In this document: piece by piece, positions 6,875 through 18,004 of the stretch
Layout of the letters: each line of letters opens with the position of its first letter
Position numbering within the stretch: position 1 is the first letter of the stretch
Virus record (IMG/VR): IMGVR_UViG_2695420876_000014
Length of the DNA stretch: 40,323 nt
Strand: one strand, 5' to 3'
Origin: a virus
Lineage: Duplodnaviria > Heunggongvirae > Uroviricota > Caudoviricetes
The notes under the pieces: model-generated
Database searches by the model: none
The model's input: only the letters and a program-made list of their open reading frames with translations
Told to the model about the DNA's origin: nothing
Program-made: the position numbers and the translations under genes

Positions 6875-7456
6875 ATGAACAACTCATGGTGGCAGGAACT
6901 AATGCATTTTTTCCTGCAAGGAATGACACTTAAACAGTTGATTCATATGCTAATCATCCTGATCATATTGATTATTGTTATGCCGGTAAGCGTAAAAGAA
7001 TGGATAAACCTGCATAATCCAGAAATCCTTCCTCATTACTGGATGTATTACATCCTGTTGTTTTGCGTTAGCTATGTGCTTAACGGCGTTGTTAATTCCG
7101 CTTATCACGCTGTGACTGAAAGAATTGAGGTATTCGCTGCTCAGAAGCGCAAATCTAAAGAAGAAAAATATGTGCAAGATTTGTTTGATTCGTTAACTCT
7201 TGGAGAAAGAGCGTATTTGGCATTCGCTGTAGCCGCTAATAACCAGCTACAAACGGAAAAGGGAGCTCATGAATCAATTTCATTGCTCAAAAAAGGACTC
7301 CTCGTTCGAAGGCCTCCTGCTGTTGGGTATCCTGATACCGACCGTTTTGTTATTCCTGAAAGCTATAGACATGAGTGCTACATTCGGTTTGCCGGGAAGG
7401 CAGACAGCCTTATGGATGAACTTATCGCTCAGGATAAGCATGGCAAAAACAAGTAA
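6875..7456 (+). CDS. sieB: superinfection exclusion protein SieB-like (two N-terminal TM helices)
   Basis: 193 aa with two hydrophobic helices (LIHMLIILIILIIVMPV and YILLFCVSYVLNGVV) and a soluble C-terminal domain; lies in the N-proximal early-left region but on the opposite strand to N. Confidence 0.55.
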   Translation: MNNSWWQELMHFFLQGMTLKQLIHMLIILIILIIVMPVSVKEWINLHNPEILPHYWMYYILLFCVSYVLNGVVNSAYHAVTERIEVFAAQKRKSKEEKYVQDLFDSLTLGERAYLAFAVAANNQLQTEKGAHESISLLKKGLLVRRPPAVGYPDTDRFVIPESYRHECYIRFAGKADSLMDELIAQDKHGKNK

Positions 7457-8362: not shown

Positions 8363-8983
8363 TTAATGCTGGGGAGTGATTTTTTTGTTGTCTGTTGGCT
8401 GGGTATTTTGTGGCGGCGCTTGCAAAGTGGAAGGCTGTTGCAAAGGTACGTGGTCTGACTTTAAAGCTGATACCAGCCCGGGAATCGCAACTATTACAGC
8501 GATAATGACACTAAAAATGGCTAATCGTATAGAAATACCCGACTGAACACCACTAATTGCGGTATTAACCCCTGTTATTTGTCCTTGAATTCCTTCGAAT
8601 CTCCCATTAATTGCTTTTATATCGCCAGCAGCGCTATCCATCTTTCCATCGATCTTGGACGATAGAGAGCTTATGGCTGCATTAAGTGATGCAAATTGGA
8701 CATTAACGCTTTCACGAGATAGAGCCATGTCAGCCCTAATGGAAGAAGCAATAGACTCCATCTCTGCTTTATTAGCAGCTAAGCGAGCATCAAGTTCCTC
8801 TCTGCTGATCGTTCCCACTTCTTCCTCCGTTTGTGGCGGTTTTATGTAATTATTTTGCACCTTGGTGGGAGAATTATCAAATTCAGCCTCAAAATCGGAA
8901 CCGCCAACAACCTTCAACCTCCGGCTTTCAGATATGTTGGTGTCTTGCTTTCCATGATTATTTAAATTACTGTCGTCACTCAT
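8363..8983 (-). CDS. tail-anchored coiled-coil membrane protein of unknown function (third gene of the cI operon)
   Basis: 206 aa: polar N-terminus, long Ser/Ala-rich heptad-like middle, one C-terminal TM helix (IRLAIFSVIIAVIVAIPGLVSAL) and a Pro/Gln-rich tail; ATG overlaps the stop of the upstream gene (ATGA). Confidence 0.6.
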   Translation of the reverse strand: MSDDSNLNNHGKQDTNISESRRLKVVGGSDFEAEFDNSPTKVQNNYIKPPQTEEEVGTISREELDARLAANKAEMESIASSIRADMALSRESVNVQFASLNAAISSLSSKIDGKMDSAAGDIKAINGRFEGIQGQITGVNTAISGVQSGISIRLAIFSVIIAVIVAIPGLVSALKSDHVPLQQPSTLQAPPQNTQPTDNKKITPQH

Positions 8984-9468
8984 AATAGCTCTACGGTGAA
9001 AAATGATTCATTTTTATGAAGTTCATTTTTAGGGTCTTCATTATCTTGCAATATCCCTATAACACTATACAGCCCTTTAGCTGGGACCCTAATTTCTTTC
9101 AATGTTACTATTACCTGTCCGCCAACCCCTGTTTCAAAATGGCTATCTTTCGTATCGATGAAAAGTGAAACTGATTCCGAAGAGCCGTCAGGGAATTGAA
9201 TTTCCTCACCTTTTTTTATAATTAGGTGCGCGGGGATTACCATAATACCCAAATTATATCTTGAATTTGGTTTCAACCCGATCATACCAACCCTGAAATC
9301 AATTGATAGCCGCGCAGGAAATTCATTGCATGTAAAATTAAGCGTCGGTTGGTTGGGTTCTTCGCTGCTATCAAATGGGGTTATAAAAGATATTCTTTCT
9401 AAATTAAGTGCCATAAATTCTCCTGCATCGCTGTATGCTCTACGAGCATCTCTGCGATCATCCATCAT
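8980..9468 (-). CDS. hypothetical protein (second gene of the cI operon)
   Basis: 162-aa ORF; a better-supported start is the internal MALNLERISF at 9414 (aggag 8 nt upstream), giving 144 aa; no recognisable domain. Confidence 0.55.
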   Translation of the reverse strand: MMDDRRDARRAYSDAGEFMALNLERISFITPFDSSEEPNQPTLNFTCNEFPARLSIDFRVGMIGLKPNSRYNLGIMVIPAHLIIKKGEEIQFPDGSSESVSLFIDTKDSHFETGVGGQVIVTLKEIRVPAKGLYSVIGILQDNEDPKNELHKNESFFTVELL

Positions 9469-9484
9469 CCAAACGTCTCTTCAC

Positions 9485-9826
9485 TCATCCGAAGAAGCAG
9501 CAATCCGGGTCAGCACGCACAAGCTCAAGCGCATCAGTCAGCGAAAGTTCAGTACTGTACTGATGCCATTTCATATCCTTCCGCATCCAATAGATTTTCC
9601 ATCTATCCAGAGAACGTATGTACTTGATTCTTGCTGATGGCAGGATGTTTGTTTCACCTGGGTTGCCCTGCCACACGGGGCGCTGTTCGCCGATATCTAT
9701 CGTTTGGTCATTGATGCTATAAACAATATCCAGTTCATTGCGGATATGTTCAGGCGGCCTTATGCTTTCAATGAATTGGTGAACTTCTTTTTTGACCGCT
9801 TGATATTCAAGGTCAGTGAACGCCAT
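9485..9826 (-). CDS. hypothetical protein (first gene downstream of cI)
   Basis: 113-aa ORF MAFTDLEYQAVKKEVHQFIESIRPPEH... with a strong SD (gaggagg) 4 nt before the ATG; 60 nt downstream of the cI stop on the same strand. Confidence 0.6.
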   Translation of the reverse strand: MAFTDLEYQAVKKEVHQFIESIRPPEHIRNELDIVYSINDQTIDIGEQRPVWQGNPGETNILPSARIKYIRSLDRWKIYWMRKDMKWHQYSTELSLTDALELVRADPDCCFFG

Positions 9827-9886: not shown

Positions 9887-10591
9887 TCACGAACTTTTCA
9901 GCCACTCCCTTGCCTCGATGTCATCCAGATGGCGAGATTGCTTCAGAATACCAGCTACATACTCCACCTTTGCTACTTGATGATAAGGCAACGTTATAGG
10001 CCTGTGATCCTGGTTAATGCTTGTAAATTGGTATTCTCCATCTCTGTCATAGCCAAGAACCTTAATCATGTTGTGTCCTTCAACGGTTCTGACAAACACC
10101 TCATCACCCGGGAATACTTTGGTGTTAGGCTCAATGAGTACATATTCTCCTGATTTTATTCTGGGCCACATGCTGTCTCCTTTCACACGAAGACCAAAGG
10201 CATCTGGATCATCGCTATAAATTTTGAGCCACCCATCGCGCTCTTCGGTCATCTCGATGGCACCATCAACACCAAGAATTGCCTCACCAACCACGCGCAC
10301 TAACCCTTTTCTTACCTGACCGACAAAAGTTAAAGAATCTGAGCATGATGCAATTGGTGTTACATCATGTACCAAATCAAGCCACCCATTAGGTAACCCA
10401 AGCGCGGCTTCAAATTTTCTTGCTAGTTTATCCCCTATGTTTCGAGTGCTTTTTTCACCGGAGACTTGCGTGAGTTGAGAAGGGCTAACCCCAAGCTTAT
10501 CGGCAAAGCTTGCATTAGTGTTACCCGCGATTTTTTTATGCTCATCTAGCAAAAACGCCAGATTCGATTTGCGAATATCTTTGTTTTCCAT
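9887..10591 (-). CDS. cI: CI-like prophage repressor (N-terminal HTH, C-terminal S24 LexA-type autopeptidase)
   Basis: 234 aa; HTH-like FADKLGVSPSQLTQV and a C-terminal domain with VKGDSMWPRIKSGEYVLIEPN (catalytic Ser, with Lys downstream) typical of RecA-cleavable repressors; divergent from the cro-like gene. Confidence 0.9.
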   Translation of the reverse strand: MENKDIRKSNLAFLLDEHKKIAGNTNASFADKLGVSPSQLTQVSGEKSTRNIGDKLARKFEAALGLPNGWLDLVHDVTPIASCSDSLTFVGQVRKGLVRVVGEAILGVDGAIEMTEERDGWLKIYSDDPDAFGLRVKGDSMWPRIKSGEYVLIEPNTKVFPGDEVFVRTVEGHNMIKVLGYDRDGEYQFTSINQDHRPITLPYHQVAKVEYVAGILKQSRHLDDIEAREWLKSS

Positions 10592-10611
10592 CTCACAATT
10601 TTCCCTCTATT

Positions 10612-10672
10612 TAGCAAATGGATAAATACGCAATATGATAAATTTACATTGCGGATTATTTATCAAAATGGT
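10612..10672. promoter_or_regulatory. OR/pR/pRM region with three GATAAAT-type operator half-sites
   Basis: aaatggataaatacg, aatatgataaatttac and, inverted, attatttatcaaaatgg lie between the divergent cI and cro starts. Confidence 0.5.
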
Positions 10673-10704: not shown

Positions 10705-10938
10705 ATGAGTAATGAACTACTACGCTGGCGAAAAGAGGCTTCTAGTGAGGAATGGAAGCGACTCGCCGCATTAGCGAAAACTTCAGTTGGCTATCTTGAC
10801 CAGATTGCATATGGATTTCGAAGAGCTTCCCCTGATAAAGCGAATGCAATCGAAGAAGCTACTCGTAATTTCACGGGTTATAAACCTGTGAAAAAGGAAA
10901 ACCTAGTGTTCGTATCGCGTAGAGCATCGGCTGCATAA
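10705..10938 (+). CDS. cro: Cro-like HTH regulator
   Basis: 77-aa ORF divergent from cI, preceded by an SD (ggagg); contains an HTH-like segment (AKTSVGYLDQIAYGFRRAS). Confidence 0.55.
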   Translation: MSNELLRWRKEASSEEWKRLAALAKTSVGYLDQIAYGFRRASPDKANAIEEATRNFTGYKPVKKENLVFVSRRASAA

Positions 10939-11076: not shown

Positions 11077-11376
11077 ATGGAACAAACAAGTTACAGCAAA
11101 CTATCACAGCGAGAAATTGATCGCGCTGAAACTGATTTACTCATCAACCTGTCAACGCTTACCCAGCGCGGTCTGGCAAAGATGATTGGCTGTCATGAAT
11201 CGAAGATAAGCAGAACGGACTGGAGATTTATTGCTTCGGTCTTGTGTGCTTTCGGAATGGCATCAGACATCAGTCCGATTAGCAGGGCTTTTAAGTATGC
11301 GCTTGATGAACTCACCAATAAAAAACGCCCGGTGTGCAAGACCGAGCGTTCTGAACAAATCAAGATGGAATTCTGA
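11077..11376 (+). CDS. cII: CII-like transcriptional activator
   Basis: 99 aa; C-terminus ELTNKKRPVCKTERSEQIKMEF closely resembles lambda CII (ILTNKKRPAATERSEQIQMEF); sits between cro and O. Confidence 0.8.
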   Translation: MEQTSYSKLSQREIDRAETDLLINLSTLTQRGLAKMIGCHESKISRTDWRFIASVLCAFGMASDISPISRAFKYALDELTNKKRPVCKTERSEQIKMEF

Positions 11377-11408
11377 GGTCATTACTGGATCTATCAACAG
11401 GAGTCATT

Positions 11409-12347
11409 ATGACAAATACAGCAAAAATACTCAACTTCGGCAGAAGTAACTTTGCCGGACAGGAGCGTAATGTGGCAGATCTCGATGATGGTTACGCCAG
11501 ACTATCAAATATGCTGATTGAGGCTTATTCAGGCGCAGATCTGACCAAGCGACAGTTTAAAGTGCTGCTTGCCATTCTGCGTAAAACCTATGGGTGGAAT
11601 AAACCAATGGACAGAATCACCGATTCTCAACTTAGCGAGATTACAAAGTTACCTGTCAAACGGTGCAATGAAGCCAAGTTAGAACTCGTCAGAATGAATA
11701 TTATCAAGCAGCAAGGCGGCATGTTTGGACCAAATAAAAACATCTCAGAATGGTGCATCCCTCAAAACGAGGGAGGTTCCCCTAAAATGAGGGACATCCC
11801 TCAAAACGAGGGAAAATCCCCTAAAACGAGGGATAAAACATCCCTCAAATTAGGGGATTGCTATCCCTCAAAACAGGGGGACACAAAAGACACTATTACA
11901 AAAGAAAAAAGAAAAGATTATTCGTCCGAGAATTCTGGCGAATCCTCTGACCAGCCAGAAAACGATCTTTCTGTGGTTAAACCGGATGCTGCAATTCAGA
12001 GCGGCAGCAAGTGGGGAACAGCAGAAGACCTGACCGCCGCAGAGTGGATGTTTGACATGGTGAAGACCATCGCACCATCAGCCAGAAAACCGAATTTTGC
12101 AGGGTGGGCTAACGATATCCGCCTGATGCGTGAACGTGACGGACGTAACCACCGCGACATGTGCGTGCTGTTCCGCTGGGCATGCCAGGACAACTTCTGG
12201 TCCGGTAACGTGCTAAGTCCGGCCAAACTCCGCGACAAGTGGACCCAACTCGAAATCAACCGTAACAAGCAACAGGCAGGCGTGACAGCCGGAAAACCAA
12301 AACTCGACCTGACAAACACTGACTGGATTTACGGGGTGGATTTATGA
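11409..12347 (+). CDS. O: replication initiator O (lambda type)
   Basis: 312 aa; MTNTAKILNFGRSNFAGQERNVADLDDGYARLSNML... recognised as lambda O, with an extra repeat-encoded segment (IPQNEGGSPKMRD) in the origin-binding region. Confidence 0.92.
   Translation: MTNTAKILNFGRSNFAGQERNVADLDDGYARLSNMLIEAYSGADLTKRQFKVLLAILRKTYGWNKPMDRITDSQLSEITKLPVKRCNEAKLELVRMNIIKQQGGMFGPNKNISEWCIPQNEGGSPKMRDIPQNEGKSPKTRDKTSLKLGDCYPSKQGDTKDTITKEKRKDYSSENSGESSDQPENDLSVVKPDAAIQSGSKWGTAEDLTAAEWMFDMVKTIAPSARKPNFAGWANDIRLMRERDGRNHRDMCVLFRWACQDNFWSGNVLSPAKLRDKWTQLEINRNKQQAGVTAGKPKLDLTNTDWIYGVDL
11757..11880. repeat. replication origin iterons inside the O gene, about six ~18-bp direct repeats of (A)TCCCTCAAAACGAGGGA
   Basis: Repeats begin near 11757, 11777, 11796, 11817, 11840 and 11862; each is an internal palindrome (tccctc...gaggga); an A-rich tract follows (11881-11925). 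Confidence 0.85.
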
Positions 12348-13045
12348 AAAACATCGCCGCACAGATGGTTAATTTTGACCGTGAGCAGATGCGTCGGATC
12401 GCCAACAACATGCCGGAACAGTACGACGAAAAGCCGCAGGTACAGCAGGTAGCGCAGATCATCAACGGTGTGTTCAGCCAGTTACTGGCAACTTTCCCGG
12501 CGAGCCTGGCTAACCGTGACCAGAACGAACTGAACGAAATCCGCCGCCAGTGGGTTCTGGCTTTCCGGGAAAACGGGATCACCACAATGGAACAGGTTAA
12601 CGCAGGAATGCGCGTAGCCCGTCGGCAGAATCGACCATTTCTGCCATCACCCGGGCAGTTTGTTGCATGGTGCCGGGAAGAAGCATCCGTTATCGCCGGA
12701 CTGCCAAACGTCAGCGAGCTGGTTGATATGGTTTACGAGTATTGCCGGAAGCGTGGCCTGTATCCGGATGCGGAGTCTTATCCGTGGAAATCAAACGCGC
12801 ACTACTGGCTGGTCACCAACCTGTATCAGAACATGCGGGCCAATGCGCTTACTGATGCGGAATTACGCCGTAAGGCTGCCGATGAACTGACCTGTATGAC
12901 AGCGCGAATTAACCGTGGTGAGACGATACCTGAACCAGTAAAACAACTTCCTGTCATGGGCGGCAGACCTCTAAATCGTGTTCAGGCGCTGGCGAAGATC
13001 GCAGAAATTAAAGCTAAGTTCGGACTGAAAGGAGCAAGTGTATGA
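12344..13045 (+). CDS. P: replication protein P (DnaB helicase loader, lambda type)
   Basis: 233 aa; MKNIAAQMVNFDREQMRRIANNMPEQYDEKPQVQQ... recognised as near-identical to lambda P; start overlaps the O stop. Confidence 0.95.
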   Translation: MKNIAAQMVNFDREQMRRIANNMPEQYDEKPQVQQVAQIINGVFSQLLATFPASLANRDQNELNEIRRQWVLAFRENGITTMEQVNAGMRVARRQNRPFLPSPGQFVAWCREEASVIAGLPNVSELVDMVYEYCRKRGLYPDAESYPWKSNAHYWLVTNLYQNMRANALTDAELRRKAADELTCMTARINRGETIPEPVKQLPVMGGRPLNRVQALAKIAEIKAKFGLKGASV

Positions 13046-17199: not shown

Positions 17200-17384
17200 A
17201 CGCCACAATTCAAACGATACCAGAGCTTCTTATCTAGACACGAGGCAATCAGACCGAAGTGGCAAGGATGCTTTCCTGCGCAAGAGGAACAGTGCTCAAG
17301 TACAACCGAGACAGCAAAGGCGAGCGTCACGTAATAGTTAACGGCGTCCTGATGGTCAAACAGGGCAAAAGGGGAAGGCCATGA
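17196..17384 (+). pseudogene. ninH: NinH-like HTH gene interrupted by an in-frame TAG at codon 14
   Basis: Frame from the ATG at 17196 reads MNATIQTIPELLI-stop-TRGNQTEVARMLSCARGTVLKYNRDSKGERHVIVNGVLMV...; resembles lambda NinH (...IPDMLVEAYGNQTEVARRLKCSRGTVRKY...); the TAG is at 17235-17237. Confidence 0.5.
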
Positions 17385-18004
17385 GACTCGAAAGCGTAGC
17401 TAAATTTCATTCGCCAAAAAGCCCGATGATGAGCGACTCACCACGGGCTACGGCTTCTGACTCTCTTTCCGGTACTGATGTGATGGCTGCTATGGGGATG
17501 GCGCAATCACAAGCCGGATTCGGAATGGCTGCATTCTGCGGTAAGCATGAACTCAGCCAGAACGACAAACAAAAGGCTATCAACTATCTGATGCAATTTG
17601 CACACAAGGTATCGGGGAAATACCGTGGTGTGGCAAAGCTCGAAGGAAATACTAAGGCAAAGGTACTGCAAGTGCTCGCAACATTCGCTTATGCGGATTA
17701 TTGCCGTAGTGCTGCGACGCCGGGAGCAAGATGCAGAGATTGTCACGGTACAGGCCGTGCGGTTGATATAGCCAAAACGGAGCAGTGGGGGAGAGTTGTT
17801 GAGAAAGAGTGCGGAAGATGCAAAGGCGTCGGCTATTCAAGGATGCCAGCAAGCGCCGCATATCGCGCTGTAACGATGCTAATCCCAAACCTTACTCAAC
17901 CCACCTGGTCACGCACTGTTAAGCCGCTGTATGACGCTCTGGTGGTGCAATGCCACAAGGAAGAGTCAATCGCAGACAATATTTTGAATGCGGTCACACG
18001 TTAG
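17381..18004 (+). CDS. Q: late-gene antiterminator Q (lambda type)
   Basis: 207 aa; MRLESVAKFHSPKSPMMSDSPRATASDSLSG... recognised as near-identical to lambda Q; the lambda-like pR' and qut region follows. Confidence 0.95.
   Translation: MRLESVAKFHSPKSPMMSDSPRATASDSLSGTDVMAAMGMAQSQAGFGMAAFCGKHELSQNDKQKAINYLMQFAHKVSGKYRGVAKLEGNTKAKVLQVLATFAYADYCRSAATPGARCRDCHGTGRAVDIAKTEQWGRVVEKECGRCKGVGYSRMPASAAYRAVTMLIPNLTQPTWSRTVKPLYDALVVQCHKEESIADNILNAVTR

Follow-up and report, generated by a model that had tools for sequence, protein, structure and literature searches.

Phage lambda initiates replication inside its own O gene (38686-39585), which encodes an initiator of 299 amino acids and contains four annotated iterons (39034-39118). 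In Shiga toxin (Stx) phages six iterons are found instead of four; they were named 1, 1', 1'', 2, 3*, and 4, and O is thereby lengthened by 13 amino acids (Kozlowska et al. 2020, PMC7466680, where the first comparison is credited to Nejman et al. 2009). In the GenBank/RefSeq record of phage 933W, six sites bound by protein O are labelled 'ori iteron 1' to 'ori iteron 6'; their positions correspond to those described below.

The 933W and P27 origins were studied by EMSA, DMS footprinting, and transformation with iteron-mutant plasmids (PMC7466680). Every single iteron can bind O in vitro, and only the four nearest to the A/T-rich tract are strongly occupied, with lambda, P27, and 933W O alike; iteron 1' is bound weakly. 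Mutations of the distal iterons abolish transformation by a P27-derived plasmid, and replacement of the A/T tract leaves O binding unaffected. The same work suggested that the extra 13 residues might act as a spacer which loosens O-some packing, and its secondary-structure prediction puts them outside the DNA-contacting part of O. The role of the A/T tract in unwinding is treated in PMC7466680 and PMC6022878; the latter also gives the domain/linker model of lambda O and reports that some in-frame origin deletions are tolerated.

The 40,323-nucleotide stretch of phage DNA analysed here (the window) contains an origin of the six-iteron subtype. The iterons follow the order 1, 1', 1, 2, 3*, 4, the 39-bp extra unit is present, and O is 312 amino acids long. 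Positions 11700-11960 are 100% identical to 933W and 11730-11830 are 100% identical to P27, while the O gene as a whole is 99.6% identical in DNA to that of 933W and of many Stx1 and Stx2 phages. The six-iteron origin is therefore already known, judging by this identity: it is annotated in 933W and has been characterised biochemically and genetically (PMC7466680). Because of the identity to 933W and P27, the published origin experiments apply to the origin sequence of the window. The locus is very probably a functional lambda-type theta origin in the linker-coding part of O, in the form found in the Stx phages 933W, P27, and H-19B. Binding of O to the iterons and O/P-dependent replication of the fragment, both demonstrated for the identical 933W/P27 origin, are predicted for this one. 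To call it an origin with six working iterons would overstate the case, since only four of the six are clearly protected in vitro (PMC7466680).

Table 1. Features of the origin region and its surroundings (window coordinates).
Feature	Position	Strand	Description
Candidate pR-like promoter	10611..10639	+	Between cI and cro; consensus match 9/12; putative function
O gene	11409..12347	+	ORF of 312 aa, replication initiator, contains the origin; PF04492 (Phage_rep_O) at residues 22-115, E 1e-35
39-bp unit	11757..11795	+	No counterpart in lambda; two iterons, 13 codons, IPQNEGGSPKMRD; single gap in alignments
Iteron 1	11757..11774	+	ATCCCTCAAAACGAGGGA; distal extra copy; same sequence as the third iteron; 933W 'ori iteron 1'
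Iteron 2	11777..11794	+	TTCCCCTAAAATGAGGGA; published iteron 1'; most diverged copy, 76%; 933W 'ori iteron 2'
Iteron 3	11796..11813	+	Lambda ITN1; aligns with lambda 39034-39051, annotated 'ori iteron 1'
Iteron 4	11816..11833	+	Identical to lambda ITN2
Iteron 5	11840..11857	+	Lambda ITN3 with one G-to-A change (published 3*): ATCCCTCAAATTAGGGGA here, ATCCCTCAAATTGGGGGA in lambda
Iteron 6	11863..11880	+	Lambda ITN4
A/T-rich, A-strand-biased tract	11881..11922	+	Putative DNA unwinding element; about 21-25% GC; identical to the lambda and 933W tract
P gene	12344..13045	+	DnaB helicase loader, partner of the O C-terminal domain; PF06992 (Phage_lambda_P), E 1e-61

The repeat finder detected six copies of a 17-18 nt unit between 11757 and 11880 (Table 1), with start-to-start distances of 20, 19, 20, 24, and 23 bp and with 76-100% identity to the reference iteron. 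When up to three mismatches were allowed, the consensus ATCCCTCAAAACGAGGGA matched four times across the 40-kb window, every time within the array; the shuffled expectation is 0.03 matches and none of 100 shuffles gave four. The two other iterons are more diverged (76%), yet they are in register. Inverted arms TCCCTC/GAGGGA, read off the sequence, make up the internal dyad of the unit, and the array is a tandem series of imperfect inverted repeats of the 18-19 bp kind, placed about two helical turns apart (six copies, 19-24 bp spacing). Directly to the right of the last iteron lies the GC minimum of the O gene, with a GC content of 0.25 and an AT skew of +0.67 over 11880-11919. An initial annotation had described these elements as six direct repeats of about 18 bp at intervals of about 20 bp, followed by an A/T-rich tract in the ori-lambda architecture, all inside O. 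Both repeats and tract were recovered, and the range it gave (11757-11925) correctly spans them. A chance or artefactual origin of the array was rejected, with 0.03 matches expected against four observed and with the array common to hundreds of independent genomes.

To the right of the A/T tract no inverted repeat was detected by the repeat tool at seed 6. Visual inspection shows a weak palindrome, ATTCGTCCGAGAATTCTGGCGAAT, at 11920-11943; it is one base pair short of its lambda counterpart because of a synonymous A-to-C change that is also present in 933W. An Rfam scan of the whole window gave no match at gathering thresholds.

The array corresponds to O codons 117-158 and the Pfam N-terminal domain stops at residue 115. 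The origin lies between the N-terminal DNA-binding and the C-terminal P-binding domains, and the insertion sits just past the former, ahead of the C-terminal half. Alignment of 11700-11960 with lambda contains one 39-nt gap and two substitutions, and the protein alignment contains one 13-residue gap at residues 117-129. The initial annotation had set a lambda O of 299 aa against 312 aa here, had counted six iterons where lambda has four, and had mapped the extra residues onto the extra repeats. All of this agrees with the lambda record and with the two alignments, in which the additional DNA consists of two iterons rather than unrelated sequence.

The segment 11756-11794 is 90% identical to 11795-11833 (lambda ITN1 and ITN2), with four differences, three of them contiguous in the spacer. 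Because iterons 1 and 3 are identical, the 39-bp gap could equally well be shifted by one repeat unit; according to the published footprints (PMC7466680), the pair of iterons most distant from the A/T tract is the likelier addition. Outside the insertion the O genes of the window and lambda differ at 18 of 900 positions (2%). The protein differs from 933W O by G13S and E17G, and from lambda O by G13S, L37I, the 13-residue insertion, and S282G (lambda numbering). O codons 13 and 17 are found at window positions 11445 and 11458. Serine 13 stands where both lambda and 933W have glycine, and the lambda-like glycine 17 (glutamate in 933W and P27) is combined with an Stx-type isoleucine 37 and a 933W-type glycine 295.

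The extra unit is exactly 13 codons long, and O variants of 299, 312, and 325 aa are all in frame. Such a pattern would be expected if the repeats were kept mainly for the protein, with a 13-residue repeat (IPQNEGxSPKxRD) setting the length of the O linker and the DNA repeats arising as a by-product; the published spacer suggestion is in line with it. Preservation of the frame is, however, required under any model, because an out-of-frame change destroys O. The repeats also possess the dyad symmetry of binding sites and a two-turn phasing, single iterons were bound in vitro, and the predicted secondary structure leaves the segment outside the part of O that contacts DNA (PMC7466680). We consider it very improbable that the protein repeat is the main reason for the array; a binding-site array within the O coding sequence is the preferred reading.

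Outgroups bear on the direction of change. The Salmonella phages ES18, epsilon34, and vB_SosS_Oslo have four iterons with 20/24/23 spacing, which is also that of lambda. With four iterons in three outgroups a duplication is more parsimonious, albeit on small numbers, and the six-iteron array was therefore probably derived by an in-frame 39-bp tandem duplication, four being the likely ancestral state. The outgroups thus support the wording of the initial annotation, that the array had expanded in-frame. In the opposite direction, it could be argued that lambda arose by deletion from a six-iteron ancestor, since recombination between the two identical 19-bp repeats would yield exactly its array. 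The 39-nt units differ from each other at 4 of 39 positions, and the O flanks are 2% from lambda. A deletion nevertheless needs more events, as all three Salmonella phages have four iterons. ES18 gp59 is 85% identical to the O protein of the window over residues 19-170 (the N-domain and the iteron-coded linker), and ES18 has no P gene. Judged by the gp59 alignment, the O N-domain and the iterons appear to travel together as a specificity module.

The six-iteron form is widespread. In the phage collection its junction was present at 99% identity or above in 71 records, with about 70 more in lower identity bands; lambda-type (four-iteron) phages among the matches listed are 78.9-86.5% identical to it. 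Among IMG/VR contigs the exact six-type junction was found in 67 and the four-type in 58, and the six-iteron form makes up about half of the IMG/VR relatives. Complete E. coli genomes possess the six-iteron junction in 692 of 5426 cases (approximately 13%) and either form in 1259 of 5426. Iteron number was compared across lambdoid relatives, as the initial annotation had proposed, in 83 sequences (the best 80 O loci plus the lambda, 933W, and window references): 41 have six, 41 have four, and one has an apparent five. The 'five-iteron' contig (L006) really has six iterons, its iteron 1' carrying an additional point change. A separate tally of four, six, and eight iterons over pooled loci counts some contigs twice and does not represent frequencies.

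A rare form with eight iterons, arranged as 1, 1', 1, 1', 1, 2, 3*, 4, was found in one IMG/VR contig and one complete chromosome. The chromosome is that of E. coli 03_3013 (NZ_CP074958.1; positions 2536-2698 of extracted locus L219), where the origin lies in an intact 325-aa O with IPQNEGGSPKMRD occurring twice, and P and ren come next; cI, cro, and cII have the same sizes in this prophage as in the window. In the contig (L094, 10125-10287) the A/T tract is cut by an apparent insertion-sequence end at the contig end. An eight-iteron probe at 99% identity or above matched 1 to 6 of the 5426 complete E. coli genomes. In the papers searched, no lambdoid study using the phrase 'eight iterons' or '8 iterons' was found, and the variant may nonetheless have been reported. 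With O proteins of 299, 312, and 325 aa, the array therefore changes by 39-bp in-frame steps.

Origins with four, six, and eight iterons are all accompanied by an intact O, which suggests that copy number is not critical for viability. This would fit a core origin made of the four proximal iterons, as in lambda, with the two distal ones serving as accessories, regulatory or structural, and not as full partners in the initiation complex. The distal copies could modulate O-some packing, cruciform formation, or the dependence on transcriptional activation or DnaA. Efficient protection of the four A/T-adjacent iterons only (PMC7466680) and the divergence of iteron 1', the least conserved copy, are consistent with such a division of roles. 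Against it, a P27-derived plasmid lost the ability to transform once its distal iterons were mutated (PMC7466680), and the six-iteron array is near-invariant across dozens of contigs, which argues against neutral decay. An accessory role for the distal pair is a serious possibility, to which we give slightly less than an even chance.

The array is polymorphic (four, six, or eight iterons) and its six-iteron form is distributed outside Stx phages. It is conceivable, if on balance doubtful, that it constitutes a length-polymorphic in-frame module that moves with the O N-domain between lambdoid and P22-like prophages, Stx and non-Stx alike, and whose copy number tunes initiation. The tuning itself, whether through O-some compaction or through dependence on transcriptional activation, DnaA, or starvation, is speculation. 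If it were true, the replication phenotype ascribed to Stx phages would belong to a widespread origin allele and not to toxin phages.

The surroundings of the origin follow the lambda gene order, with Pfam matches for the cognate O and P in an operon after pR, cro, and cII. The cII gene (PF05269, Phage_CII) precedes O, and P overlaps the O stop codon, as in lambda. The pR-like site lies between cI (9887-10591, minus strand) and cro (10705-10938), a position matching that of 933W pR, with the caveat that shuffled sequence yields a similar number of matches in the region. A pO/oop-like antisense element (11322-11434, minus strand) overlaps the end of cII; a promoter-like sequence occupies 11434-11406, and a hairpin with a T run, resembling a terminator, occupies 11352-11322. 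The larger part of cII is of another type than in lambda, but identity to lambda begins in the region of the cII stop and continues from there.

The carrier is not a Shiga-toxin-converting phage: the window has no stx operon, and its structural genes are P22-like. The late genes resemble those of P22, HK620, CUS-3, and Sf101 and include Terminase_3, a portal, and a tailspike with the P22 head-binding domain (PF09008). The identical O protein also occurs in other prophages, whose late regions resemble those of lambda or of Stx phages but contain no stx. The six-iteron subtype is thus not Stx-specific, and the identity of the origin is unaffected by its carrier. Positions 1409-22347 are 100% identical to an E. 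coli draft contig (GCA_001277575.1), in which no gene is called in the approximately 690 bp between Q (17381-18004) and the holin. No tRNA was found in the window.

The eight-iteron contig with the interrupted A/T tract indicates that decaying prophages carry such origins, and the origin of the window might likewise be a silent relic in a defective prophage that does not fire. Its O, P, and ren genes are, however, intact within a complete-looking prophage. Intact reading frames are also present for cI, cro, cII, the nin genes, Q, and the lysis genes, as well as for terminase, portal, coat, tailspike, and integrase, and the exact O protein is present in 87 blocks of the protein collection. A silent relic is accordingly very improbable, and a functional origin remains the preferred reading.

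Several other genes of the prophage were noted. The left end (1-1248) encodes a LacY-family permease, annotated in matching genomes as an oligosaccharide/sucrose MFS transporter (cscB). A tyrosine integrase (39172-40323, minus strand) is located downstream of the tailspike at the window end, and matching genomes annotate a torI-type excisionase at the left end. Integrase and excisionase therefore mark opposite prophage ends, which we take to be the KplE1/HK620-type arrangement. Between tailspike and integrase there is a 441-aa ORF (37431-38756, minus strand) with no Pfam or PADLOC match; P22-like phages have serotype-conversion or other accessory genes at this position. A SieB superinfection-exclusion homologue (6875-7456, plus strand; PF14163, E 2.5e-22) adjoins N, as in P22 and lambda. 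A three-gene cluster (8363-9826, minus strand) is placed between N and cI, at the position of rexAB in lambda. One of its products, a DUF3024 protein (9485-9826, minus strand), matches the PADLOC candidate defence family PDC-S43 (E 7e-42), and the proteins at 8980-9468 and 8363-8983 (minus strand) gave no significant family match. The cluster may be a prophage-encoded exclusion or defence module.

A mechanism can be proposed by combining the anatomy observed in the window with the lambda, 933W, and P27 literature (PMC7466680, PMC6022878). Rightward transcription from pR would produce O and P and, by crossing the origin, would activate it. Dimers of O would use their N-terminal domain to bind the dyad-symmetric iterons, and with sites about two helical turns apart the bound DNA would be bent and wrapped into an O-some. 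On supercoiled DNA the torsional stress would then open the adjacent A/T-rich tract. The C-terminal domain of O would recruit P-DnaB, after which host chaperones would free the helicase. In the six-iteron version most of the binding would be done by the four iterons adjoining the A/T tract, and the two distal ones would bind O weakly and still be needed for plasmid establishment. The 39-bp duplication would lengthen the O linker by 13 residues.

The element probably marks the start of replication of the prophage after induction, and the value of the result is mainly correct annotation. In addition, it places the 'Stx-type' allele in toxin-free P22-like prophages. The natural series of four, six, and eight iterons offers material for testing the role of the extra iterons.

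Compared with the lambda origin, the origin of the window occupies the same gene and position and has the same iteron consensus, and ITN1, ITN2, ITN4, and the A/T tract are identical. Lambda differs in lacking the 39-bp unit, and thus has four iterons and a 299-aa O, in having G instead of A in iteron 3, and in one synonymous A/C change in the weak palindrome. The origins of 933W, P27, H-19B, and VT1-Sakai are closer: they share six iterons in the same order, the same 39-bp extra unit, the 312-aa O, the A-variant of iteron 3, and P and ren downstream. In 933W the immunity region is different (cI, cro, and cII of 235, 75, and 98 aa, compared to 234, 77, and 99 aa here), as are O residues 13 and 17, and the Stx phages differ from the window in their virion genes, which are P22/HK620-like here, and in the stx operon. 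The ES18, epsilon34, and Oslo origins share the iteron consensus and, at 85% identity, the N-terminal O domain with its linker, but the C-terminal half of their O is unrelated and its partner is a primase/helicase, not P. Iteron plasmid origins follow a shared logic, with directly repeated initiator sites beside an A/T-rich unwinding element, and plasmid iterons control copy number by handcuffing. The plasmid initiator family is unrelated, however, and plasmid iterons are intergenic, whereas here the iterons are themselves the coding sequence of the initiator.
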